DNA of 64,000 nucleotides from an uncultured Bacillales bacterium (GTDB lineage: Bacteria > Bacillota_I > Bacilli_A > RFN20 > CAG-826): assembly GCA_947302535.1 (NCBI GenBank), contig CAMYVX010000001.1:64705-128704 (forward strand), in the 5' to 3' direction. Both the position numbers and the translations under genes were made by a program. Positions 22 through 15,257 of the stretch are shown here, piece after piece. The notes beneath the pieces are model-generated. The model was given only the letters and a program-made list of their open reading frames with translations, ran no database searches and had not been told where the DNA came from. Each line of letters opens with the position of its first letter. Position 1 is the stretch's first letter.

Positions 22-216
22 ATGGAGCACCCAAACAAAATAGTGGAGTTTATTAATAATTATAACGATAGGATTAATTGCAAAAACAAAGAACAGTCAT
101 ATGTTATCTATAGATATTTTTCTACAGTAGTGTATGTGGCAATCGCATATGCCAATGGTCTAACAAGAGAAATCGATAACTATGAGAATGTATATTCGTT
201 TTTTAAAGGAAAATAA
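22..216 (+). CDS. hypothetical small protein (64 aa); possibly an immunity or orphan cassette partner of the downstream ORF
   Basis: Complete ORF with no recognisable domain. It is tightly followed by ORF 235..492 on the same strand. Confidence 0.3.
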   Translation: MEHPNKIVEFINNYNDRINCKNKEQSYVIYRYFSTVVYVAIAYANGLTREIDNYENVYSFFKGK

Positions 217-2618: not shown

Positions 2619-3428
2619 TCAATAAATTTCAAGATAGTTACTTTTAAATGTTTTCTGTAGAACAACATCTCCTTTATATCTTGGATTAGAGATAACGCCA
2701 TCATACATTCTGGTTCTAAAGGTTTTAGAAAAGTTTAATGATGCAAAATCTCTTCTCATAAATCTATCAACATCATGCATCTTGATATTAGACACAAAGA
2801 GCATAAATACTGTCCTAATAGCGATAGCTTCTGGTTCATAGATGTAAATCTTAACAAAGCTATCTTTTCTAAATCCTAATATTGGTCTAACTCTTTTAGA
2901 GATATTTCCCGATTCCATTCTTTCATGGATACCAGAGGAAACACGAACCGACTGTTGACGAGATTCTTCCTGCGCTAGAGCGGAATACATGGTTAGCATG
3001 AAATCTAGTTTTGAATTGGAAGCATATAATTCATCAGTTTCAAAGTATACTTCAACACCCAGATTTCTTAATTCGTATATCGCTTGAAGAGTGTTTATCG
3101 TATTTCTACCAAACCTGGACATTTGCTTAACCAAGATAGGATCAATGAGTCCTTCTCAACATTTATCCATCATGTCTTGAAATTCTTCTCTTTTATCTAT
3201 GGATGTACCAGATTCAGTATCCGCAAATATTCCTACAAATTCCCGCGTGTTCTTCTTGAATATTCTTTTATATCTTCCAATTTGAGCATTAAAAGATTCT
3301 AGTTGTTCCTCACTATCAGTGGACACTCTAACATAGGCACAGACTCTTAATTTATGTTCTGGACTGGCTTCTTTTATTAATTCTTTTTCCAACTTCTTAG
3401 TCACTGGAATTATTGTCTTTTTTACCAT
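2619..3428 (-). pseudogene. large serine recombinase (resolvase/invertase family), disrupted by an in-frame stop and truncated C-terminally
   Basis: The N-terminal fragment (3156..3428) contains the catalytic-serine region YVRVSTDSEEQ. The second fragment (2619..3134) carries resolvase motifs (RFGRNT, LRNLGVEVYF) and the start of the recombinase domain. The two fragments are separated by a stop at about 3153. The combined length of about 260 aa falls well short of the 450-550 aa expected. Confidence 0.7.
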
Positions 3429-3597
3429 AGATACCTATAACAGGCATTTTGTATTTCTTTCTTAGAAGAATTATAGCTTCGGCCATCTCAAAAACATCGA
3501 TAACTCCCTTATCGCATAATTCTTCTAAGATATAAAGGCAGATGTTATATTCATATGGAAGTTTTTTATCTAGGATAACCTTGTCTTTATTGTGCAT
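3397..3597 (-). CDS. small hypothetical protein (66 aa), paralog A of a duplicated small ORF
   Basis: About 55% identical to ORF 8158..8394 (DKKLPYEYNICLYILEELCDKGVIDVFEMAEAIILLRKKY versus DKNQPYEYNIAIIILGELSNEGIIDIFDIAEALIKLRKLY). Its 3' end overlaps the recombinase start. Confidence 0.5.
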   Translation of the reverse strand: MHNKDKVILDKKLPYEYNICLYILEELCDKGVIDVFEMAEAIILLRKKYKMPVIGIYGKKDNNSSD

Positions 3598-3676
3598 AGT
3601 GGTGCCCGTTCCTTATGTGTCTATAAATCCATCAAAAAAGAGAGAAGTGCAAGTTGTTTTCAAGTATAATAAAAAC

Positions 3677-4894
3677 ATGAACGATAAATTAGATATTTAT
3701 TTTAGCAAAGTGTTTTGCCGCATGAGACATAAGACTCAACTCTTTAATGGTGCGGCTGATGATCATTATCACACTAGACTTCAGCACACAATCGAAGTTG
3801 AAGAGATTGCTTTAAAAATGGCTAAAAAGTTAATGTATGATAACTCTGCTATTAAATGCGACTTATCGAAAGTATCAAAAATAGCGCTCCTTCATGATAT
3901 CGGTCATACTCCTTTCGGTCATGCTGGTGAAAGAGCTTTGCATGAGATTATTTCTGGGCAATGCTGCAAAGAACATAATCTTCCAGATTTTAATAAATTA
4001 GGAGTTATTATTGGTTTCAAACATAATATTAATTCCGGACTTCTTTACATAGAAAGCGTCAAATTTGATAATGTCGATTTCGATATTCTTGACGGCATTG
4101 TTAGACACACAAAACTTTATTATGAAAATCAACAAGATTTGGATTACGGTTTTAAATACATTTTTCATGAACGCAAAGAATATTATGATAATAAAGGGCC
4201 GAAGACCTTAGAGGGTTTTATAGTTGCTTATGCAGATGAAATTGCCCAAATATGTTCTGATTATTTAGATATTTGTTTAGATAGCCAATCAAAAGGGCTT
4301 GTTCCAATTTCATTTAAATCCAGGCCGTTCACAAACCTTAGTGTTTCTTCTTCTGAAAAAAGAGTCGAGGCAAAAGCGGCTTGCGATTATTTGATTGATT
4401 TGTTTGCTGATTGTTTCAAACAAACCGATTCATTTTCGAAATTCAATGATAATGAATTCCTTAGTGTTTTAGATGAATTTGATGAGGCAAGAAAGAATTA
4501 TATTAAATCCAACAAATCCATCATTAAATATGATGATGAAAAATCAAAATTGATTAAATCTCTTTTTGCGTTTTATTACAATAATCCTGATGAAATTACA
4601 AACGATTTCTTTGATGACTTTGTATATAGATCTAGAAGAATAGAATATGAGACAAAGTTAGTTCTAAATGATGTTTCATTTCATACAGCAAACAAAAAGG
4701 AAACAATTAAATTTATTGAAAGAGTTTATTCAATTATTTCTGAACAAATAAGTGGCGAGCAACTAACTAATAACAACATTAAAGATTATAGAAACGTTTT
4801 TAAGTTGTATTTAAGAAGTTTGGCAGTTTTTATTTCAAAGATGACAGATAATTATGCGGAACACAAGTTTAGTAAAACACTTGACATTAAATAA
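3677..4894 (+). CDS. dGTPase-family (dNTP triphosphohydrolase) HD-domain phosphohydrolase
   Basis: RMRHKTQLF matches the dGTPase N-terminal motif (FRRLQxKTQV). The HD motifs are H..HTIEVEEIA and LLHDIGHTPFGH. I place the start at the internal ATG 3677, not at ORF start 3542, because the longer version would overlap the divergent small ORF. Confidence 0.8.
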   Translation: MNDKLDIYFSKVFCRMRHKTQLFNGAADDHYHTRLQHTIEVEEIALKMAKKLMYDNSAIKCDLSKVSKIALLHDIGHTPFGHAGERALHEIISGQCCKEHNLPDFNKLGVIIGFKHNINSGLLYIESVKFDNVDFDILDGIVRHTKLYYENQQDLDYGFKYIFHERKEYYDNKGPKTLEGFIVAYADEIAQICSDYLDICLDSQSKGLVPISFKSRPFTNLSVSSSEKRVEAKAACDYLIDLFADCFKQTDSFSKFNDNEFLSVLDEFDEARKNYIKSNKSIIKYDDEKSKLIKSLFAFYYNNPDEITNDFFDDFVYRSRRIEYETKLVLNDVSFHTANKKETIKFIERVYSIISEQISGEQLTNNNIKDYRNVFKLYLRSLAVFISKMTDNYAEHKFSKTLDIK

Positions 4895-4948
4895 CATTCA
4901 TCTATAATTTAGATATCAAAAGAGAAGAACTTAATTGTTCTGCAAATG

Positions 4949-4975
4949 AATCTCAGCAATGAGATTTTTTGTTTT
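4949..4975 (+). terminator. rho-independent terminator downstream of the HD gene
   Basis: AATCTCA-GCAA-TGAGATT hairpin followed by TTTTTTGTTTT. Confidence 0.55.
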
Positions 4976-5179
4976 CCATTTAGTTTGACCCATTAAAAAA
5001 TAAACCCCAATAAAACAGTATTTTACAGAATAATAAAAACAAACGGAGTTGAATGATTGCTTTATAAATGATATTTCGAGAATTTAAAGCAATAGATTTT
5101 AGTAGTAACTCTGGACAATTTCATTCCTATTGTAACTCCACTAATTGTCTTTATTATTGCCTAGCAATATACTTTATTT

Positions 5180-7888
5180 ATGAGAAGTTTGAAACTAGAT
5201 GCTAGACAATATATTAAAAACGCCAATGATAATATCGAAAGCAATATAGATTTATTATGTCCTAACCACATAGGTTTATGTGCTCAAAACATATTGGGCC
5301 AATCAAGAAACCTATTGGATGGATTCGCCCTTCTACAATATGGTATAGATTATCCAACTTCCAATATTGACAATGCCTTGAAATTGATTCAAGAGGCTCA
5401 AAAACATTTGACACAAAAAGGCAAGAATTATCGTTGCTTTGTAGACTTGTATTCCTTTTTGCAAGTTTCTGCCTCACATTATACTCAAAACATTTTTGAT
5501 TCTGAATCACTTTTACTGAAGTACTCCGACTATTTATTTGATATTAGAGAATCCGCTAAAACATTATTTGATATTGATATTTTAAGCAACCTCGAAGATT
5601 TTCCATTTTCAAACAAGGAAGATGAAGAATATTATCGTTCCATCAAAGATGTTCTATTAGAGGGCGATGGTGGTGAAAGCACCATCGATCACACATATTA
5701 TATAGAGAGAAGAGTAAGAAGAAGATTCGGTATATACGAATATGTTCTTTCGCCCGCAAACGACAAAAGAACTAAATTTGATCGTTTAACAGCTTTCTCA
5801 TTAACAAAAATCAATGATTCTCATTCTATTAAATGCCGATTTGCCAAAAAGAAATTGATTCACAACGGAATAACAATTCAAATCGTTAAAATTGTTGATT
5901 GGTCGATTTCAATAAGACCATGTGAAATTCAAAAGTTGGCGTTTATTCAGCATCTGGATTTCAAAATCAATAGAAATACATCTGGATATATGCCACTTAT
6001 GGATGCACTAACCGCAAATAATTGCAGTTTGTATGATTTTATTATTTCTCCTTCGTTTGAAAGCGATATTAATGAATTGCTTTTGGATAAAGATAATAAA
6101 ATACGTCGCTTTTTGGAAGAAACACGAAAAAACATTAACACAGATAAAGTTGGTAGTAAGACTTTAAAATATCTTCTCTTTATTTGCTTACATAACATCA
6201 TAAAATATCAAATCATTCGCGATCCAGAAAAACAATTGGGTTATTATAGTTTGAATAATAGGTGCTACGCCTTTGATTCTCACCCATTCTCATTATCACT
6301 CATAAATCATAATCCAAAGTTAAGCGATTTATTAGACTGTTTGCCAGAATACTGCACAAATGAAGAACTACTTAAAAGAACAATTGTTATAAATACAGAA
6401 GATAGAAAGATGCTTTATACACCAGTGAAAGAACTGGATAAGGCATTCAACACTCTTGATTATGCTAAGGAATTTAACAAAATGCTAGTTGAAAAAACAA
6501 AGGGCTTGGCAATTGAATTTTTCAACAACTATGCTTATATCAAGTCTTACGAAGAACATACTATTTCAATTTTAAATGCCTTAATTGCAAAAAGAAGGAT
6601 TGTTGACCCTGACTATGAATCGGTGGCACTGCCCTATATTTCAAGTCTTCGTGATAATGAAATAGATAATGAAAAGATTGATATTCTCAAAAAAGGCTTT
6701 ACAGATTCATCGGTGTTATTAATTAATGGTGCAGCTGGAACCGGCAAGACAACACTAATTAAACATTTTTCCAATATTTTTAAAGATAAGAAAATCTTAT
6801 ACCTATCATGCACTAACTCTTCGGTTCAAAATCTTCAAATTAAAGTTGGCAAATCAGATAATAGAACTTTCATGACTCTTGAGAGATTTAGAAAGAAGAT
6901 GAATACGGGTGGTAACTTTAATTATTCTATTTTAATCGTTGATGAATGTTCTATGGTGGAGAACGAGGCTTTTGATTTTGTTCTAAAGAACATGGATTTT
7001 GAAAAAATGTTGCTCGTAGGTGATGAAAGACAAATCGAATCTATCAAGTTCGGAAACTGGTTCGGTATCGTTAATTCATTGTTAGATTGCGGTTGCGAAT
7101 TAACGTTTACTCACAGGACCACCGACAAAAATTTACAAACTATTTGGGATGCCGTTAGAGAATTAGAACAGCAGGATAGACTTTATGAGAGAATAATTAA
7201 TGCCGGATATCATCATCAATTTGATAGTGATTTATTTATCCCTAAGAGTTCTGATGAAATAATACTTTGTTTAAATTATGATGGTCTTTACGGCATTAAC
7301 AACATTAATAGATATCTCCAAGAAAGCAATCCTAATAGGGCTGTTTCTTGGAAAGTTTGGACTTTTAAAGTGGGTGATAGGGTATTATTTAATGAAAGCT
7401 ATTACTTTAGAGATTATTTTTATAACAATCAAAAAGGCATAATTGAAAGCATCGAAGATGATGATTACTCGGTGACATTTGTTGTATATGTTAATAGTGA
7501 ACCAACCAATAATCACAGTTGTTCTTCTCATGTGCGTTGGATTAAAGAAGAAGATGAAAAAGATTATTACTCAATAAGAATTGATAAGGATGATGACGAT
7601 GACGAAGAAGATAATTCTACAAAAGTATTGGTTGTCCCATTTCAACTTGGGTATGCAATTTCAATTCACAAATCACAAGGTCTTGAGTATGATTCTGTGA
7701 AAGTCATTATGACCAAAGAAGTTGAAGAACAAGTAACACACAACGTGTTTTATACTGCGATTACAAGAGCAAAGAAATTTCTTTCTATTTATTGCGATAA
7801 AGAATCCTTGTCTAGGATTATCAATTCTTTTGAAAAGCAGACCACCAAAAACGACGCTGAAATAATAAAGCGAAAATATAATCTTTAA
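5180..7888 (+). CDS. SF1B RecD/Pif1-like DNA helicase (AAA_30 + UvrD_C_2 type) with an uncharacterised ~430-aa N-terminal region
   Basis: Walker A LLINGAAGTGKTT. Motif II ILIVDECSMV. Motif III LLVGDERQIES. Motif V AISIHKSQGLEYDSV. Motif VI YTAITRAKKFLSIY. The N-terminal 430 aa has no motif I recognise. There is an acidic insertion DKDDDDDEEDNS. Confidence 0.75.
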   Translation: MRSLKLDARQYIKNANDNIESNIDLLCPNHIGLCAQNILGQSRNLLDGFALLQYGIDYPTSNIDNALKLIQEAQKHLTQKGKNYRCFVDLYSFLQVSASHYTQNIFDSESLLLKYSDYLFDIRESAKTLFDIDILSNLEDFPFSNKEDEEYYRSIKDVLLEGDGGESTIDHTYYIERRVRRRFGIYEYVLSPANDKRTKFDRLTAFSLTKINDSHSIKCRFAKKKLIHNGITIQIVKIVDWSISIRPCEIQKLAFIQHLDFKINRNTSGYMPLMDALTANNCSLYDFIISPSFESDINELLLDKDNKIRRFLEETRKNINTDKVGSKTLKYLLFICLHNIIKYQIIRDPEKQLGYYSLNNRCYAFDSHPFSLSLINHNPKLSDLLDCLPEYCTNEELLKRTIVINTEDRKMLYTPVKELDKAFNTLDYAKEFNKMLVEKTKGLAIEFFNNYAYIKSYEEHTISILNALIAKRRIVDPDYESVALPYISSLRDNEIDNEKIDILKKGFTDSSVLLINGAAGTGKTTLIKHFSNIFKDKKILYLSCTNSSVQNLQIKVGKSDNRTFMTLERFRKKMNTGGNFNYSILIVDECSMVENEAFDFVLKNMDFEKMLLVGDERQIESIKFGNWFGIVNSLLDCGCELTFTHRTTDKNLQTIWDAVRELEQQDRLYERIINAGYHHQFDSDLFIPKSSDEIILCLNYDGLYGINNINRYLQESNPNRAVSWKVWTFKVGDRVLFNESYYFRDYFYNNQKGIIESIEDDDYSVTFVVYVNSEPTNNHSCSSHVRWIKEEDEKDYYSIRIDKDDDDDEEDNSTKVLVVPFQLGYAISIHKSQGLEYDSVKVIMTKEVEEQVTHNVFYTAITRAKKFLSIYCDKESLSRIINSFEKQTTKNDAEIIKRKYNL

Positions 7889-8157
7889 AAAACAGATAAA
7901 ACAACAACATAATTACAGCATTAATTCTTAAAAGAGGAATAGTGGCTAAAGGCAATCATAAAGTTTTAGCGACTTATGTTATTCACTGTAATAGTAAGAA
8001 CTCTAATAAATCTAAATTAGTTAAATCTATGTATCGTGTATATCATGAATCGCAAGGATTTAATTGGCCAAAGAGTTGGATATATGTATTTAGGATATGC
8101 ATTATATAGCGAGAAAAAACATAGGGATGTCAGATAGATTATAAAAACGACATATGG

Positions 8158-8394
8158 CTAGTGTTTGTCATAGAGTTTACTTATGGTTTGTAGCTGACAT
8201 AGACAAACACTCGCCGAGATATTTATAAATGGGAGATTATATAGTTTCCTTAATTTAATAAGAGCTTCCGCTATATCGAAAATATCTATTATTCCTTCAT
8301 TAGATAGTTCACCAAGTATGATTATGGCTATGTTGTATTCATATGGCTGATTCTTATCGATTACGAATCTATTTTTCTCTCTTTGCTTTCCCAT
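8158..8394 (-). CDS. small hypothetical protein (78 aa), paralog B of the duplicated small ORF
   Basis: Paralogous to 3397..3597. It is divergently oriented 61 bp from the STAND gene. No recombinase ORF lies downstream of it. Confidence 0.5.
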   Translation of the reverse strand: MGKQREKNRFVIDKNQPYEYNIAIIILGELSNEGIIDIFDIAEALIKLRKLYNLPFINISASVCLCQLQTISKLYDKH

Positions 8395-8455
8395 ATGTCT
8401 ATAAGTTGATCAAAAAGAAAAGTAATTCAAGTCATTTTGAAATATAATTATTAGC

Positions 8456-11400
8456 ATGAGCGAAGCGACCCAAAACGCACTTAAAGGTTATGGCTTCCAA
8501 ATGGAAGTTGCTATCTTATTTTGTTTTTTAATGGAGTTTTATCCAAATTCGTTTGATTATCTAAAATGCGAAATTGGAGATGAAGTGGAACATAATTTTG
8601 ATGACATTATTTTAAAGTCCAAAACCAAATCATATTTTATTCAAGTGAAAAATTATTCTTCAAAAACCGAAAAAGCATTTTACGAAGATGGTTACATCAT
8701 ATATTGTGGTCAAAAAATAAAATTGTCGAAAACAGACATAAATGTTTTTGTGTGTAATTCTATCTATTGTGATAACGAAAATATAAAAAAAGACTTTTAT
8801 GGTCTGCAAGCTAGTTATATTGAAGAAGGAAATGTCTACATCATATATTTATCGCCAGACCAAATTGAATCTTTTAAGAACGATAATTGTATTAACGATT
8901 TCAGAAGAAGACAATTAGATTCATTTTTTAGCGCCAAAATATTAAACTCAGAAAGAATAAATATAACCGATTTGCCTAAATTTGAATTGTATTGCAATGA
9001 GTTGGCTGAACAAACAATTAAAGTTAGAGAGTTTATTAAAAAACCGGACGAAAATGTTTTGTTTATTGTTGCGCCACCCGGTTATGGAAAAAGCCATTTT
9101 GCAAACGAGATTGAATTGCCTAAAAAGATTATTTATAGATTTTGGATTTCACAAGCAGATAATAATTTCACAGATAGACTAAAATATAGCCACTTCCTTG
9201 AACAGCTTTCTTATTCTGTAGATAATGGTGAACATCGTAAAAAGGATTTGAGGACCATTATAGAAACACTGTCCTTTAATGGACAAACACTTATTTTGGA
9301 TGGGCTTGATCATGTGTTTACGTATAATCAGCTAGAAGTCAATAAATACATAGATTTTATTAATGAATGTTCGAAGAAAAATACAATCAATCTTATTGTT
9401 TTAACAAGGCCATTAACCAATACATTTTATAAAAAGTATAAAGTGTTGTTCTTACAGAACTGGACAAAAGATGAATGTTCTGCATACTGCAGATATTTTA
9501 AGATAAACAGAGAAGGGCAAGAGAAAATTTATAATATTTCTAATGGCTATCCAATAATCGTACATTATTTATGCGAGGAATACCTTAAGAAAAAAGGCCG
9601 CCTTTCTATTGAAGGAAAAATCGATGGGTTAGATGATTATTATGAAAAAATTCTCTCAGTTGGCGGTTTTGATTCTAATTTAAACAGACTTAGATTAATT
9701 GCATCAATCACCCCTTTTCTTCATCTGAACGACCTGGAACTTTTGTATGACGGCTTTATTGCAAATCAACTTGCATCACTGATTGGTGATTTTCCTCATT
9801 TAGTTTCATGCAGTAATAAAAGAGTTTTCTTTTATCATGAATCTATTTACCAATACATATTATCTAACACAGATATTTCTTATTTTGATGAAATACACGA
9901 GAAAATTTTTAGCTTATTGCTTTCCGGCGATGTTACATTCATGTCGAGAATTTCTTTGTCTCTTTTCAGCAAAGGACAAGTGAAGAAACTGATTAAAAAA
10001 TATTCTAATTTAGATTTCTTCAAAAGTTTATTTGATAAAACGTTTGATTTTGAATCGATAAAAGTTTTTTATAGAAAAATAATGGATGAACTGAGCACTT
10101 TCAAAAGTGCCCCGATTGATATTTTTTGTATATATAATTTGGTATTAATACTTCTTCTTTTGAGTAGGAATTGCTATGAAGATAACAAAAATTTGGTTTT
10201 CCAATTATTTACACAATTAGAGAACAACAATAACAAATGGGAAAATTATGTGTTTAGTAGTGGGGCATTATTTAATGTTTTTTCAGAGATTAAATCTATA
10301 CCATTTTTAGAAAGAGACCCAACTGATATCTTTATTTTGAATGACGGAGATTTGCCTATTGAGGAAATGATTGAACAGGAGAACAAATATTTTAATGTTC
10401 TTAATTTTGATTATAGAAAACCAACATCTAATTATCTTGAACTGAATAAAACATATCCAGATTCAAATGTTTTGGCTGAATACTTTGTTTCTGGATACAT
10501 CCATGAGACAGATTCTATTTGCAAAACAATCATAAACGAGTACGAAAATGGATATAGCAACTATTATATTGCTCATAAAGTGTTAAATTCACTTAGCTTT
10601 ATAGATTATAAAACAGATACATTTCCTATTACTTTTGCATTAAGCAAGGCTCTTGATAGATTAAGATGTTTGGGAATTAAGCAAGGCATCGCTGAATATG
10701 ACACAATTTCTAGTTTTCTTCTGTCGCATAAAGATTTGAATACATTCGACATGTATAATGATTTGAATGGTTATATTAGATATTCAAACAAGATTGGTAG
10801 AAAACTTAATTTATGTGAAATAGCCCCTTATTTGTTGATGATGGATGCACACAAAGATCAAACTATCAGTTATGTTCCTGAAACTATGGCATTATATGTT
10901 AAGCATGGCGTTTTTACTATTGATGAATGTCGTCGATATCTTTCTAAAATATATTCTCTAATCGATAGTGGGAATAAATCGGCAGCTACAAATTTTATAA
11001 ATGAGTTAGGGCAAGAATATGTTGATGAGCTCATGTCTAATGGTTTTTTTGATACAGATTCGTTTTATATTTTTTACTCTAGTCTTAGCAAAAATATCCT
11101 TAACAAATTGCCATTTAATTATGTTTTGAATTACGCAATGGACTATTATTTGCGCTATCCTCAATCAAGAACTTATGTCACTAATGAAGAATTAGGAAAT
11201 ATCCTTAAATGTAAGCACATGAAAAAAATTAGACAGATGTTTTATGCGGATGGTATTGAAATAAAGTACACTTCATATGCAAAATCACAAAAGCGCGATT
11301 TTACAAAAAAACAGCTTGAAAAAGATTGGTATTTTAGAGATGGTTGTCTTGAACTATACAAAAAATATGATTTCTCTATAGAACAAATGGCTAGGTTATA

Positions 11401-11656
11401 CGATGGATGGGGTTTTAAATTATTTGATCCAAGTATCTTTTCTATCTTTGATGATGATATCGTGCGCTCTAATATAGAAAGAATTATTTTTATCGGCTTT
11501 ACCGAGAAAAAGGATATTTTCTATAAATATTTCCAATATAATGCAACACTTATCTACACGATTCCGATGTTTTATCATTTATATTGCAAAGATTTTAACT
11601 ATAAAAAAGCAGGTAAAATTTTTAAAAATTTCTTAGACATTATTCTTAGAATTTAA
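8456..11656 (+). CDS. STAND/NACHT-type P-loop NTPase (antiviral-STAND / bNACHT-like) with an N-terminal PD-(D/E)xK-like (DUF4297-like) nuclease domain
   Basis: Walker A FIVAPPGYGKSHF. NACHT-style Walker B LILDGLDHV. The N-terminal ~150 aa contains GYGFQMEVAI...FDDIIL...IQVK, consistent with a restriction-endonuclease-like fold. The C-terminal ~600 aa is a long helical region. Confidence 0.65.
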   Translation: MSEATQNALKGYGFQMEVAILFCFLMEFYPNSFDYLKCEIGDEVEHNFDDIILKSKTKSYFIQVKNYSSKTEKAFYEDGYIIYCGQKIKLSKTDINVFVCNSIYCDNENIKKDFYGLQASYIEEGNVYIIYLSPDQIESFKNDNCINDFRRRQLDSFFSAKILNSERINITDLPKFELYCNELAEQTIKVREFIKKPDENVLFIVAPPGYGKSHFANEIELPKKIIYRFWISQADNNFTDRLKYSHFLEQLSYSVDNGEHRKKDLRTIIETLSFNGQTLILDGLDHVFTYNQLEVNKYIDFINECSKKNTINLIVLTRPLTNTFYKKYKVLFLQNWTKDECSAYCRYFKINREGQEKIYNISNGYPIIVHYLCEEYLKKKGRLSIEGKIDGLDDYYEKILSVGGFDSNLNRLRLIASITPFLHLNDLELLYDGFIANQLASLIGDFPHLVSCSNKRVFFYHESIYQYILSNTDISYFDEIHEKIFSLLLSGDVTFMSRISLSLFSKGQVKKLIKKYSNLDFFKSLFDKTFDFESIKVFYRKIMDELSTFKSAPIDIFCIYNLVLILLLLSRNCYEDNKNLVFQLFTQLENNNNKWENYVFSSGALFNVFSEIKSIPFLERDPTDIFILNDGDLPIEEMIEQENKYFNVLNFDYRKPTSNYLELNKTYPDSNVLAEYFVSGYIHETDSICKTIINEYENGYSNYYIAHKVLNSLSFIDYKTDTFPITFALSKALDRLRCLGIKQGIAEYDTISSFLLSHKDLNTFDMYNDLNGYIRYSNKIGRKLNLCEIAPYLLMMDAHKDQTISYVPETMALYVKHGVFTIDECRRYLSKIYSLIDSGNKSAATNFINELGQEYVDELMSNGFFDTDSFYIFYSSLSKNILNKLPFNYVLNYAMDYYLRYPQSRTYVTNEELGNILKCKHMKKIRQMFYADGIEIKYTSYAKSQKRDFTKKQLEKDWYFRDGCLELYKKYDFSIEQMARLYDGWGFKLFDPSIFSIFDDDIVRSNIERIIFIGFTEKKDIFYKYFQYNATLIYTIPMFYHLYCKDFNYKKAGKIFKNFLDIILRI

Positions 11657-11888
11657 TTGCATTAATACAGTCGAAAACTTTTTTTGAGACAAAATCTTTG
11701 TATTTATTCAGTCGGTGAAAGACAAAAATGAAAAGATTAGTTTCTAATATCAATGCATATAATCAAAAGCCACACCCTTTTCTTAATTCAACTGTAACAG
11801 TATGACGTTTGACATACTAAAACCACAAATTGAAACTTAGTGTGACAAAAAAGTTGATTTTGGCACATCAATAAATTATCATTTAAGC

Positions 11889-13079
11889 ATGAAATACGAT
11901 TCTGTTGAAAAGCAATTTCATAAATTAACAAAAGAACAATTTGATGAATGGTTTGATAAAAGGTTTAATTCAAACACCACATATCATTTTGATATTGAAA
12001 TTGGCAAATCACCTGCTTTCTTTTGTTTTGATATCCCTTTATTCAATAAAATTCTTGAGATTCAGCAAAAGAATGACCAATTAAATAATTTATTTAATAA
12101 TTTGCCTCTTATTGCAAGCCAACAATATATTAGAAATTCTCTTGTTGTTGATGTTAAAAAAACAAACGAAATAGAAGGAGTGTTTTCTTCTAGAAAAGAG
12201 ATCTTTGAGTTAACTGAAGATCTTAAAAAAAGGAAATCAAATAAGATAGGATCTATTGTTAACAAATATCTATTACTGCTCAACGGAAAAAGCGAAAAGA
12301 AAATTTCCAGTTGTGAAGATATCAGAAAGATTTATAACGAATTATTTATATATGGTGATGAATCTTTGATTGACCCAGATAAATGGCCTGATGGCAAGCT
12401 GTTTAGAAAGGATTATGTTGGAGTTTATGATGCCGGCAATGATGAACCTATCCATAATGGCATAGTGCCTGAAGAAAAAATAATTAAGTATTTAGATGTT
12501 GCGGTTTCAATTTTGAATAACCAAGACATCAATGCATTTGTCCGTATATCTTTGTTTCATTATATTTTTGAATACGCCCATCCATTTTATGATGGTAACG
12601 GAAGAATAGGTAGATATTTAGTATCGATGTTTGTTAAAAACAAAATAAGTAGTATCTTTGCTTTTAGAATTTCATCAGGAATCAATAACTATAAGAACAA
12701 GTATTATAAAGCATTCAAAGACACAGAGGGTGTTTTGAATAAAGGCGACTTAACTCTATTTGTTTATGAATTCCTGGATATCTTGGATAAAACCTATGAT
12801 GATTGTATTGATTACGCAAAATCTAAAAAGAAAGAGCTTGAGGACAAATATAATGACCTTAAAGCTAAAATGCCTAGATTAAGTAAAAACGAAGACAATG
12901 TTTTGTATGTGTTAACGCAGGCTACTATTTTTTCCGATTTTGGTATAACCATTCAAGAGATACAATCAACATTAAAAATCAGTGTGAGAACTATTAGACG
13001 TTGTATTAATACGTTTAAAGAAAAGTCCATTTTAACTGAAAAAAGGCTTTCTAAAAAAATGCTGTATTCCTTGGTTTAG
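11889..13079 (+). CDS. Fic/Doc-family protein (AMPylation-type Fic domain)
   Basis: Canonical Fic motif HPFYDGNGRIGR. The C-terminal region is wHTH-like. Confidence 0.8.
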   Translation: MKYDSVEKQFHKLTKEQFDEWFDKRFNSNTTYHFDIEIGKSPAFFCFDIPLFNKILEIQQKNDQLNNLFNNLPLIASQQYIRNSLVVDVKKTNEIEGVFSSRKEIFELTEDLKKRKSNKIGSIVNKYLLLLNGKSEKKISSCEDIRKIYNELFIYGDESLIDPDKWPDGKLFRKDYVGVYDAGNDEPIHNGIVPEEKIIKYLDVAVSILNNQDINAFVRISLFHYIFEYAHPFYDGNGRIGRYLVSMFVKNKISSIFAFRISSGINNYKNKYYKAFKDTEGVLNKGDLTLFVYEFLDILDKTYDDCIDYAKSKKKELEDKYNDLKAKMPRLSKNEDNVLYVLTQATIFSDFGITIQEIQSTLKISVRTIRRCINTFKEKSILTEKRLSKKMLYSLV

Positions 13080-13122
13080 AGTGTTTTATTTGAGGATATT
13101 ATTCGGTTGCATTAAATACCAA

Positions 13123-13911
13123 TTAATACACATATTCAAATGAAGCATATGGATGTTCTATATCCATCAATACTTTATTTTTCTTTTTAAGTGTATATCT
13201 TATCTTCACACATGGACACTCATGTATAAATCTAGTCATATTACCTTTAGTGGGTGCTTTTAGAGCATGACCGTTAAAGTCATCTATATTTATATCTAAT
13301 ATGTATTTACCTTTTTTGATAATAATATGATTTTGACTTATAAGTTTTGCTTTAGCAAAGTTATAAGTACCAAATCTATATTCTTTATTATTATGTTCAA
13401 TTAGACAGGTTACCCCTGTTATCTTAAATAATGCTAATGGTATCGTGGCTACCGCTAGTGTGATACTAGCTTCTTTATTAATAGCATTTAGCCATAGATA
13501 ATTCTTAGGAAAGTTTCTCCCTTTATCACCTTCTATGTATCCATTACCATTAGCGAAGTCTATTTCATTACCATTAATAGTGATACTTCCACTTAACTCA
13601 TGATACATAGAATATATTTGATGCTTACATTCAATAGGTAGGTACCTATAGTAAGACATAATATCTTTCCTATTCTTTAATAGTGGCCCATATTTAATCT
13701 CACCAGTAATTATCAAATCATCTTGATGAACATTAAAAGATATACCTTTAAAAGATATTTCTATTTGTGATAAATCTTTTAATAAATACGATCCATCATT
13801 GGCGATGATTTGTATCATCTTGCCTTCATTACTAATAGAATCAATTATTGCGACCATATCACCATTAATTGATTGATGCTTATAGTAAATACCAAAGAAT
13901 TTGTTTTTCAT
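13123..13911 (-). CDS. hypothetical protein (about 262 aa from the internal Met; ORF extends to 13989)
   Basis: Long ORF with coding-like composition. The motif YIEGDKGRNFPKNYLWLNA weakly resembles tocopherol-cyclase/CrtC-like proteins. I could not reach a confident family assignment. Confidence 0.45.
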   Translation of the reverse strand: MKNKFFGIYYKHQSINGDMVAIIDSISNEGKMIQIIANDGSYLLKDLSQIEISFKGISFNVHQDDLIITGEIKYGPLLKNRKDIMSYYRYLPIECKHQIYSMYHELSGSITINGNEIDFANGNGYIEGDKGRNFPKNYLWLNAINKEASITLAVATIPLALFKITGVTCLIEHNNKEYRFGTYNFAKAKLISQNHIIIKKGKYILDINIDDFNGHALKAPTKGNMTRFIHECPCVKIRYTLKKKNKVLMDIEHPYASFEYVY

Positions 13912-14048
13912 AATAATCAGTTTAAATGATTTGAAAACATCAATAAAGAAGAAACACGAATAATCTAATGGTGAACGATTGAAACACAAGATATTTGCTA
14001 TTATTTTTTTGTTCGTATATAATACGATAGCAAAAAGAGAGTATTATT

Positions 14049-15257
14049 ATGGTTATTTCAGTAGCAGGTACAGGATATGTTGGATTAAGTAACGCGATTA
14101 TATTAGCCCAACACAATAAAGTTTATGCCGTAGATGTAGTTCCATCTAAGATTGATTTAATTAACAACAAAAAGTCTCCAATCATCGATAAAGAAATTGA
14201 AGAATATTTGGCAACTAAAAAGTTAGACCTTACTGCTACATTAGATGGTGATAAAGCCTATAAAGATAGCGAACTAATCATCATTGCCACTCCTACAAAC
14301 TATGATAGCGCTACTAACAAATTTGACACATCCTCTGTTGAATCAGTTATTGAACAAGTGAAAAGAGTTAATCCTAATGCTTGGATTATTGTTAAATCAA
14401 CAGTGGGTGTTGGTTTTACCAAATATGCTAGAGAAAAACATAATTATGATAAAATCCTTTTCTCTCCTGAATTCTTGAGAGAAGGGAAAGCATTATATGA
14501 TAATCTTTACCCATCAAGAATAGTGGTGGGTGTTCCTGAAAAGAAAGAACCATATTTATCTAAAGCCAAAGAATTCGCAACTTTGTTACAACAAGGTGCG
14601 ATTAAAGAAAATATAGAAACCCATATCTTAGGATGTACAGAAGCAGAAGCTGTTAAGTTATTCGCTAATACATATCTTGCCTTAAGAGTGGCTTATTTCA
14701 ATGAATTAGATACATTTGCTCAATTAAAGGGTTTAGATACTTTGGATATCATTAAAGGTGTATCTGCCGATCCACGTATTGGAGACTTCTATAACAATCC
14801 ATCCTTTGGTTATGGTGGATATTGTTTACCTAAAGACACCAAAGAGTTAAAAGCTAACTTCGAAGATGTTCCAGAGAACTTAATATCCGCGATTGTGGAA
14901 TCTAATAGAACAAGAAAAGACTTTATTGCTGATAGAGTACTTCAACTTGCTGGATATAAGAACGATGGTAAAGATAATGTTACTGTTGGTATCTATAGAT
15001 TAACCATGAAATCCGGTAGTGATAACTTTAGACAATCGTCTATCCAAGGCGTTATGAAGAGATTACAAGCTAAAGGTGTAAAGATTGTTATCTATGAACC
15101 AACACTTAAAGATGAAGAATTCTTTAACTCTAAAGTTATTAAAGACTTTAATGAATTTAAGAAAGTATCTAAAGTCATTATTGCTAATAGATACGATGCA
15201 TCTTTGGATGATGTTAAAGATAAAGTCTATACAAGAGATTTATTAAGAAGAGATTAA
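14049..15257 (+). CDS. ugd: UDP-glucose 6-dehydrogenase
   Basis: N-terminal Rossmann motif [12 protein letters not shown]. Catalytic Cys motif GGYCLPKD. Lies adjacent to a UDP-glucuronate epimerase. Confidence 0.9.

Follow-up and report, generated by a model that had tools for sequence, protein, structure and literature searches.

What does a RecD-type helicase do with 430 N-terminal residues that carry no domain annotation? The question is raised by a 902-codon ORF, found intact on ORF checking, in a 64,000-nucleotide stretch of a contig from an uncultured Bacillales bacterium (hereafter the window). A sequence-only reading of this DNA had placed the helicase motifs in the C-terminal ~470 residues of the product and had proposed the preceding region as its sensor or effector part. 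The features that emerge from the present analysis are collected in Table 1.

Table 1. Coordinates of the helicase gene and its domains in the window.
Feature	Residues (aa)	Nucleotides	Strand	Description
Complete ORF	902 aa	5180..7888	+	From ORF calling, PDC-S53 match and homologs; stand-alone member of PADLOC candidate family PDC-S53
Domain 1	8-160	5201..5659	+	Predicted four-helix bundle, putatively HEPN-like fold
Domain 2	171-243	5690..5908	+	Predicted five-stranded OB fold, basic, pI 10.1
Domain 3	247-430	5918..6469	+	Predicted mainly helical, highest pLDDT (90-96)
Helical segment	431-508	6470..6703	+	Already RecD/RecD2-like; equivalent to the region before domain 1A
SF1B helicase core	509-902	6704..7885	+	Motifs I-VI; beta-rich insert at aa ~720-802
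Acidic loop DKDDDDDEEDNS	802-813	7583..7618	+	Disordered; acidic across the family

Rather than being a one-off oddity, the window protein belongs, as a typical member, to a family that has been catalogued before. It matched the PADLOC model PDLC05035 (PDC-S53) over its whole length (E 6e-249, 826.7 bits; aa 9-900 aligned to positions 5-894 of the 900 in the profile), with no architectural difference from that family. Domain 1 alone was recognised by the same model (E 2.9e-28), and all 31 domain-1 sequences matched PDC-S53 and no other PADLOC model. Full-length homologs numbered 73, at 34-98% identity; homolog P0001, 98% identical, is of equal length. The PDC set, including its S-class of single-gene systems, consists of computational candidates nominated by 'guilt by embedding' (Payne et al., bioRxiv 10.1101/2024.01.29.577857), and the one-gene organisation and restriction-modification neighbourhoods of the present family agree with how PDCs were nominated. 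PDC-S53 is a computational candidate only and its role in phage defence is putative; our literature search found no text or supplement naming S53, giving its domains or testing it, and nothing specific on a characterised RecD-like single-gene defence.

Residues ~431 to 902 constitute a RecD/RecD2-like SF1B motor in which all NTPase motifs are intact: I (GAAGTGKT, 517-524), II (DECS, 588-591), III (VGDERQ, 613-618), IV (THRT, 644-647), V (SIHKSQG, 828-834) and VI (YTAITRAK, 858-865). The motor residues are invariant in the family. Going by the family to which it belongs, such a motor would be expected to translocate 5'-3' on ssDNA and to unwind DNA. The earlier placement of the motifs in the C-terminal ~470 residues holds for motifs I-VI, all of which lie at aa 517-865; the RecD-like region begins before them, however, with residues ~431-508.

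The boundary drawn earlier between the two parts of the protein was inconsistent. Nucleotides 5180-6480, given as the extent of the N-terminal region, correspond to residues 1-433, whereas the peptide quoted as its end (KGFTDSSV) comprises residues 505-512 (nucleotides 6692-6715). The accompanying observation that the region contains nothing recognisable was borne out for residues 1-430. Searches of Pfam, NCBIfam, PHROG and PDB sequences gave no match within residues 1 to ~430 of the window protein or its homologs, the Pfam helicase matches (AAA_30, Viral_helicase1, UvrD_C_2) beginning at residue 496 and the PDB-sequence matches at residue 491. With the N-terminal 505 residues as query, NCBIfam returned 0 families at E<=1 and PHROG a single chance-level match (E 0.31). 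Pfam searches with 18 homologous N-termini gave no consistent match even at E<=10, and profile HMMs of residues 1-500, 1-166 and 244-440 retrieved nothing for the N-terminus from all PDB sequences. About 20 N-terminal positions are invariant across 71 homologs.

Structure prediction with AlphaFold2, which had been suggested as a check on this region, gave a confident model (pLDDT 87). Two models, built from 42 sequences and forming the basis of the structural inferences made here, had pLDDT values of 86.7 and 87.1 and pTM values of 0.82 and 0.80, and divided residues 1-430 into a helical bundle, a basic OB fold and a further helical domain. The pTM of the full-length model (0.82) suggests that module and motor are packed together into a single unit and that the module is not carried on a flexible tether. 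A Foldseek search against the PDB gave no match at E<=0.001. Taken with the conserved positions, the models support the view that residues 1-430 form a conserved, family-specific and confidently folded module, neither linker nor junk.

Domain 1 is predicted to consist of four long helices (residues 8-26, 31-57, 105-130 and 146-160) with a helical-hairpin insert (66-78 and 82-97). Its near-invariant residues are R43, E/D47, S99-H100, Y115 and Y151, with H100 conserved in 103 of 105 representatives. The predicted OB fold of domain 2 resembles those of RecO, SSB, PriB and RPA, the similarity being modest (Foldseek E>=0.015, TM-scores ~0.2-0.5). Y174, E187, K199, F200 and R202 are conserved in this domain, and its basic character is shared by the family, with a median pI of 9.15. 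Its pI and the conserved Y174, K199, F200 and R202 point to a DNA-binding-type OB fold, for which nucleic-acid binding is putative. For domain 3, no structural neighbour was present among the matches listed by Foldseek against the PDB. Near-invariant residues in or near this domain are R246, E249, Y331, Q344, F365, P369 and H377, with N433 just past its end.

Several specific assignments for the N-terminus were considered and rejected. A papain- or transglutaminase-like Cys-His site at C248 and H377 is at odds with an almost all-helical domain 3 and with the variability of the cysteine, and a PD-(D/E)xK or HNH site is unsupported by any family match. A relaxase was also rejected: the TraA/TraI HMMs align to the helicase part alone (aa 463-632), and a helical bundle and an OB fold are predicted for the N-terminus.

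We examined the distribution of this module and the surroundings of the genes that encode it. A search with an N-terminal profile recovered 1198 cluster representatives (50% identity clusters), and the best 150 of these clusters were all N-termini of ~900-residue helicases or fragments thereof. A word-indexed search with a domain-1 profile for stand-alone copies or other fusions returned short fragments only; of the two that were looked up, one proved to be a pseudogene, split and disrupted by an IS, and the other an ORF lying at the end of a contig. Among the matches inspected, therefore, the three-domain array occurs only at the N-terminus of ~900-residue helicases of the PDC-S53 family. At least 584 species-representative genomes, spread over many phyla, contain a relative. 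Among 185,579 species representatives none exceeded 39% identity to the window protein, and a scan of genome contigs with the single window protein as query found no relative. A copy of the protein at 98% identity was present in a metagenome with different neighbours, and the cassette DNA is 96.6% identical to a cassette in another genome, again in other surroundings; the family is distributed patchily and varies between strains. Conserved stretches of ~200 bp at the 'junctions' between cassettes, which had the look of recombination sites, turned out to be small paralogous minus-strand ORFs. Few plasmids (5 of 72,556) or phages (2 of 50,697) carry a relative, and in both phages the gene adjoins restriction or methylase genes and is encoded on the other strand from the replication genes.

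In the window, the gene sits between a dGTPase gene and a SoFic gene; across the family, genes for restriction-modification or other defence functions are often close by. The commonest neighbours in 86 loci were HsdR (11), a C5 methylase (11) and HsdM (8), while single loci contained Lamassu, McrBC and MmeI; Cas9, WYL and SLFN; or TIR and HNH. No obligatory partner emerged from these 86 loci: no neighbour family was found in more than 11 of them, nor any at a fixed position, with the exception of a small sister clade (5 of the 86 loci and the 2 phages) that has a conserved upstream partner. No homolog of that partner is encoded in the window.

The reading that we favour, at about even odds (probability roughly 0.5), is that the N-terminal module recognises nucleic acid and regulates a RecD-type helicase that works alone within defence islands. 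The OB fold and its flanking helical domains would bind ssDNA, perhaps in the form of a protein-coated intermediate in the replication or recombination of an invading element, and the module would load or gate the 5'-3' motor. ATP-driven translocation or unwinding on such intermediates might then block propagation of the phage or plasmid. The location of one homolog among housekeeping genes, the partner of the sister clade and the modest similarity of the OB fold all weigh against this reading. A purely binding or regulatory role may also be too modest, given that the near-invariant H100, E187, E249, Q344 and H377 resemble a catalytic or ligand site. The earlier interpretation is partly supported: the conserved, folded module belongs to a protein of defence islands, and an OB fold and a HEPN-like bundle are kinds of domain used as sensors or effectors in known systems. 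The label 'sensor or effector', reached by exclusion plus context, is putative, and no catalytic motif can be assigned to the module.

Should the family defend against phages, a RecD-type motor would join the short list of single-protein helicase immunities, and the family would offer a test of OB-fold ssDNA sensing as a general trigger. PDC-S53-type helicases are common, yet the only names that databases give them are 'RecD-like helicase' or 'AAA ATPase'. With a fixed three-domain module in place of the blank residues 1-430, hypotheses can be addressed by mutation: the bundle offers R43 and H100 as candidate sites, the OB fold Y174, K199 and R202, and domain 3 E249 and H377. Even if the family has no part in phage defence, the result is of use as the description of a typical member of a catalogued candidate family.

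A different role for domain 1, which we judge unlikely, is that of a divergent HEPN ribonuclease effector. Here the motor and OB fold would sense phage ssDNA and release the RNase, and cleavage of tRNA, rRNA or mRNA would abort the infection. In HEPN proteins the active site carries a conserved Rx4-6H motif where core helix 3 ends, helices 2 and 3 are often separated by an insert, and some families have lost the motif histidine yet keep another conserved histidine (PMC3710099). The helical-hairpin insert of domain 1 is of the kind known from that survey, the family consensus QLRNLVEH carries R-N-x3-H with a polar residue following the near-invariant R43, as in HEPN motifs, and H100 could be the substitute histidine. 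HEPN domains are, furthermore, fused to SF-I helicases in restriction-associated proteins, including a fusion of DUF4145 to 'UvrD helicase (endoV alpha subunit)' (Anantharaman et al. 2013, PMC3710099). A precedent for the proposed switch is DARNA, whose N-terminal HEPN tRNase (aa 1-159) is switched on when another of its domains binds ssDNA (bioRxiv 10.64898/2026.02.22.705581). DARNA has a canonical R117/H122 site, forms dodecamers and contains neither a helicase nor an OB fold (same source); it may serve as a working analogy should domain 1 prove to be an RNase.

Other details of domain 1 speak against this proposal. The R43-N44-x3-H48 motif falls midway along the second helix (aa 31-57), whereas HEPN active sites lie where core helix 3 ends, and the motif histidine is present in only 35 of 105 representatives, being replaced by glycine in the window protein. 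Domain 1 was not linked to any HEPN family by Pfam (E<=10), PADLOC models or PDB sequences, DUF4145 included, and hhalign against RnlA gave a probability of 0.14%. The window protein additionally differs from the known HEPN-helicase fusions in that an OB fold and a further domain separate the bundle from the helicase.

Similarly improbable, in our estimation, is a switch in which the OB fold captures phage ssDNA delivered by the motor and thereby turns on a non-canonical nuclease site formed from R43, E47 and H100 and/or E249, Q344 and H377. If true, the N-terminal module would be a new sensor-effector unit, and PDC-S53 an immune system made of one protein, new in its mechanism and present in most bacterial phyla.

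We are more doubtful still that the true effector or trigger is a new kind of nuclease or ligand-binding site in domain 3, to which residues of the OB fold and domain 1 might contribute. Near-invariant polar residues are most densely gathered in domain 3 (R246, E249, Q344, D/E366 and H377, with N433 and K499 nearby), this domain has the highest model confidence, and a nuclease domain is carried by single-protein helicase defences such as Nhi. Nhi (SERP2475) is a 606-residue protein with a PD-(D/E)xK nuclease at its N-terminus and a DUF2075-type helicase, lies near defence genes and acts on phage replication (bioRxiv 10.1101/776245). Like the window protein, it combines an extra N-terminal domain and an SF1B helicase in a single chain. 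In the window protein, however, residues 1-505 match no nuclease family, PD-(D/E)xK included, the helicase is RecD-type with only a partial match to PF09848 (aa 511-590, E 3e-7), and no Nhi model was matched in the PADLOC search. Nor were HNH, PLD or Toprim matches to domain 3 found in Pfam or PADLOC; Cys248 is present in 86 of 105 representatives and so is not invariant, and the almost all-helical domain could simply be DNA-binding (helix-hairpin-helix or winged-helix-like) or a scaffold.

Sources label relatives 'RecD-like DNA helicase YrrC' or 'Dda-like helicase'. Could the window protein, then, be an ordinary housekeeping helicase (RecD2-like repair), or one for the replication or transfer of a phage, plasmid or ICE, its N-terminus being a lineage-specific DNA-binding accessory without a role in immunity? 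Those annotations, weak NCBIfam matches to TraA/TraI relaxase-helicases, the relatives on two phages and five plasmids and the one homolog amid housekeeping genes are in its favour, and the order of OB fold, helical domain and RecD core recalls what we presume to be the layout of full-length RecD2/YrrC. The protein shares motifs I-VI and the RecD-like fold with RecD (the E. coli RecBCD subunit) and RecD2 (Deinococcus, Bacillus); its scores against the TIGR01448 (RecD2) and TIGR01447 (RecD) models, however, were 131.4 and 110 bits, far below the orthology cut-offs of 500 and 310. Similarity to the N-terminal part of RecD2, which the sequence-only reading had named as evidence against its proposal, was found for residues ~431-508 only; RecD2 model positions 1-251 do not align to residues 1-430, and nothing equivalent to these residues exists in the RecD2 model or the RecD and RecD2 structures. 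Given, in addition, that the genes are patchy, strain-variable and defence-island-like rather than core, that a 98% copy has other neighbours, and that plasmid and phage copies are rare, with both phage copies beside restriction or methylase genes, we regard this as the least probable of the explanations.

Finally, the acidic insertion noted earlier in the C-terminal domain of the helicase does exist as the stretch DKDDDDDEEDNS, with pLDDT below 50 at residues 809-812, but is not peculiar to the window protein. In the family alignment it is a loop of near-constant length with 3-15 acidic residues, located directly before the conserved strand VPFQ.

The window encodes a protein that, by fold and motifs, is a RecD-type SF1B helicase with intact NTPase motifs. 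Helicase motifs I to VI were all found, with the Walker A motif at residues 517 to 524, and K523, D588 and E589 are invariant across 105 family representatives. Pfam matches are confined to the C-terminal part (AAA_30, Viral_helicase1 and AAA_19 at residues ~496 to 665; UvrD_C_2 at 824 to 868), while PDB-sequence matches (RecD, RecD2 and Pif1) start from residue 491; together with the motif positions, these confirm the placing of the motifs in the C-terminal part by the sequence-only reading. The protein is no ortholog of RecD2 or RecD, its NCBIfam bit scores lying below the cut-offs (131 against 500; 110 against 310). An Nhi-type nuclease-helicase identity was rejected, as the PD-(D/E)xK domain is absent and the helicase subfamily differs. 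A relaxase-helicase identity was also rejected.

The protein matched the PADLOC model PDC-S53 over its full length (E 6e-249) and, by this HMM match and its single-gene organisation, is a member of that family. PDC systems are candidates nominated computationally through 'guilt by embedding', the genes being ones located inside BREX, DISARM or type I restriction loci (bioRxiv 10.1101/2024.01.29.577857); our search of the published literature, supplements and later papers included, turned up nothing that names or tests S53. The window protein is typical of this catalogued, uncharacterised candidate family. Relatives are encoded by at least 584 GTDB species representatives, spanning Firmicutes, Actinomycetota, Bacteroidota, Proteobacteria, Mollicutes, Patescibacteria, Cyanobacteria, Spirochaetota, Nitrospirota, Verrucomicrobiota and one archaeon, with 31 to 42% identity to the window protein (at most 39% for near-full-length matches).

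What is newly described for the protein is how its N-terminus divides into domains. The sequence-only reading had described a long N-terminal region without recognisable motifs, and the core of that observation holds, since residues 1 to 505 alone matched no NCBIfam family (E<=1) and PHROG only at chance level, and no consistent Pfam match was present among 18 homologous N-termini even at E<=10. The end of the region had been placed inconsistently: nucleotides 5180 to 6480 encode residues 1 to 433, but the quoted KGFTDSSV is residues 505 to 512 (nucleotides 6692 to 6715). A separate model of residues 1 to 505 was as confident as the full-length model (pLDDT 87.1, pTM 0.80) and comprises three domains. 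Foldseek with this model returned no match at E<=0.001; the best matches were OB folds (RecO, SSB, PriB and RecJ; probability up to 0.96). This fold is basic (pI 10.1; family median 9.15) and conserves Y174, K199, F200 and R202. Domain 2 is thus reasonably established as an OB fold of the ssDNA-binding type within a conserved three-domain module. The acidic run reported within the motor's C-terminal domain does exist but is no insertion particular to the window protein: in the family alignment it is a loop of near-constant length and usually acidic composition. In the model this loop is disordered, and it directly precedes the conserved strand VPFQ.

The N-terminal alignment, used as a profile in an exhaustive search, recovered 1198 cluster representatives at E<=0.001 (456 at E<=1e-30). 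The best 150 of these were all ~900-residue proteins with the module N-terminal, or truncated fragments; the short matches of a second search were fragments, the two inspected being a split, IS-disrupted pseudogene and a contig-end ORF. No other architecture carrying the module was seen among these. The module thus seems to belong to this helicase family as a fixed component and not to be a mobile domain. Decayed relatives at two loci (L087 and L088) consist of a 187-residue N-terminal ORF followed by separate helicase pieces or an IS (rve) insertion, and this N-terminal piece was found on many contigs.

Positions of features in the window, the window protein and loci of homologs (L numbers)
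Feature	Position	Strand	Detail or basis
Split serine recombinase (resolvase)	2619-3134; 3156-3428	-	Pfam
Small paralogous ORFs	3397-3597; 8158-8394	-	66 and 78 aa
Small-ORF copies	L001 ~2708-2914, 9772-9922, 13784-14202; L003 ~1410-1637, 4259-4357
dGTPase gene	3542-4894		PADLOC dGTPase
Perfect sigma-70 consensus	4881-4908	+	TTGACA, 16 nt, TATAAT; 12/12
Hairpin, then T-run	4949-4975	+	aatctca-gcaa-tgagatt; ~40 nt downstream of promoter-like site
Shared helicase cassette	5171-8141; L001 9992-12951		96.6% DNA identity
Helicase ORF	5180-7888	+	902 codons, intact; ORF call
Domain 1, long-helix bundle	aa 8-160		helices 8-26, 31-57, 105-130, 146-160; model
Domain 1 insert, helical hairpin	aa 66-78, 82-97		model
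Domain 2, beta domain	aa 171-243		five strands; model
Domain 3, mostly helical	aa 247-430		model; highest pLDDT (90-96)
Acidic run DKDDDDDEEDNS	aa 802-813, nt 7583-7618	+	sequence
RF03531 match	7709-7801	+	29.4 bits vs gathering score 65.2; E 0.37
1066-aa ORF	8456-11656	+	directly downstream of helicase; P-loop-like APPGYGKSH near aa 210
Fic gene	11889-13079		SoFic match
Decayed relatives	L087 4822-6861; L088 4347-7048		466-487-aa and 242-aa helicase pieces
Sister-clade pair, Erysipelothrix phage phi1605	L090 6128-6964, 6983-9739
Sister-clade pair, Terrisporobacter phage TPDSL_ph1	L091 6065-6901, 6920-9712
Other sister-clade loci	L035, L038, L061, L068, L069

We propose, with a probability of about one half, that the N-terminal module recognises ssDNA from an invading element, or an intermediate in which this ssDNA is coated with protein, keeps hold of it, and loads or gates the 5'-3' motor. 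By translocating or unwinding, the motor would disrupt phage or plasmid replication or recombination.

That domain 1 is instead a divergent HEPN RNase effector appears unlikely. The family consensus QLRNLVEH includes R-N-x3-H, the most frequent form of the HEPN motif, and R43 is near-invariant (104/105 representatives) with a polar residue following. In the model, however, R-N-x3-H falls midway along the second helix, whereas a HEPN survey puts the motif where core helix 3 ends (PMC3710099). Only 35 of the 105 representatives have His48; the window protein has Gly at this position, and its clade as a whole has Ala or Gly. H100, in an S-H-Y-T loop, is conserved in 103/105. HEPN families with a swapped catalytic histidine exist (PMC3710099), so domain 1 may still hold an active site. 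No profile linked it to any HEPN family in Pfam, PADLOC or PDB sequences, nor did hhalign against RnlA. As modelled, domain 1 appears HEPN-like in fold but lacks the defining motif; an RNase function is possible but unsupported, and the window protein is not demonstrably a HEPN protein. HEPN-helicase fusions were predicted in 2013 (PMC3710099), and DARNA possesses an N-terminal HEPN domain switched on by ssDNA (bioRxiv 10.64898/2026.02.22.705581); by analogy, the window protein may work like either.

A new catalytic or ligand site in domain 3 and its surroundings is improbable, yet a catalytic role should not be dismissed, mainly because H100, E187, E249, Q344 and H377 are near-invariant.

A housekeeping or mobile-element helicase without an immune role is improbable, although one homolog does lie among housekeeping genes: the family is rare on plasmids (5/72,556) and phages (2/50,697). 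The helicase is a stand-alone gene resident in defence islands. Homologs adjoin TIR and HNH genes at one locus, an AAA_15/AAA_21 ATPase at another, Lamassu, McrBC and an MmeI-type enzyme at a third, and Cas9, WYL and an SLFN-type helicase at a fourth. Neighbour clustering within 6 kb at 86 loci found no conserved partner, the most frequent neighbours being HsdR (11), a C5 methylase (11) and HsdM (8).

The gene is shared with the metagenomic contig L001, which encodes a homolog of equal length and 98% identity (P0001). Identity begins 9 nt ahead of the ATG and reaches ~250 nt beyond the stop codon, while the surrounding genes and their order differ; this suggests that the gene moved recently, as a unit of its own. 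The downstream ~250 nt (7889-8141) recur at 93% identity inside a glycosyltransferase gene at another locus (L003 709-914), suggesting that remnants of polysaccharide-locus genes lie between cassettes.

In the window, the helicase gene is flanked by an HD-domain dGTPase gene (E 7e-32) on one side and, on the other, by the 1066-aa ORF and then the SoFic-type Fic gene (E 2e-37); next to it lie a split serine recombinase and a locus for polysaccharide synthesis. The recombinase comprises a 90-aa ORF with Resolvase positions 2 to 59 and a 171-aa ORF with positions 69 to 143 plus the Recombinase domain, and is probably a disrupted gene at the island edge. From its P-loop-like sequence, the 1066-aa ORF would be a large unannotated NTPase-like protein of the defence island; it had no Pfam, PADLOC, NCBIfam or PDB-sequence match, matched PHROG only at chance level, and is not beside the helicase in L001.

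A low-GC stretch (~4000-14000; GC 0.28-0.31 against 0.35-0.39 at the window's right end) contains the helicase, dGTPase-type and Fic genes and adjoins UDP-glucose dehydrogenase and epimerase genes of the polysaccharide locus. Shine-Dalgarno motifs are absent from the helicase, the 1066-aa ORF, the Fic gene and two adjacent polysaccharide genes and present in most window genes from ~23 kb on. The sigma-70 consensus is located ~270 nt ahead of the helicase ATG, where it overlaps the last part of the dGTPase ORF; promoter-like sites are no commoner in the window than in shuffled sequence. A sub-threshold match to Rfam RF03531 ('Clostridioides difficile sRNA included into helicase gene') in the 3' part of the helicase ORF is probably chance or host-gene homology.

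The two small ORFs share the core PYEYNI...L.ELS..G(V/I)ID(V/I)F(E/D)(M/I)AEA(I/L)I, have no Pfam match, and are encoded on the opposite strand, the first upstream of the dGTPase ORF and the second upstream of the 1066-aa ORF. The first overlaps the annotated dGTPase start, so the true start is probably downstream of 3597. Copies (85-92% DNA identity) repeat several times in related islands beside differing genes; in L001, one such copy lies immediately upstream of the helicase.

In a sister clade of the helicase (N-terminus ~27% identity), the gene is always directly preceded by a conserved same-strand ORF of ~250-298 aa, with the C-terminal motif YVKLHPD...YPYDAFIDDW; this partner has no homolog within the window. 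Its two phage copies are 83% identical although the host genera differ, and restriction/methylase genes adjoin the pair in both phages.
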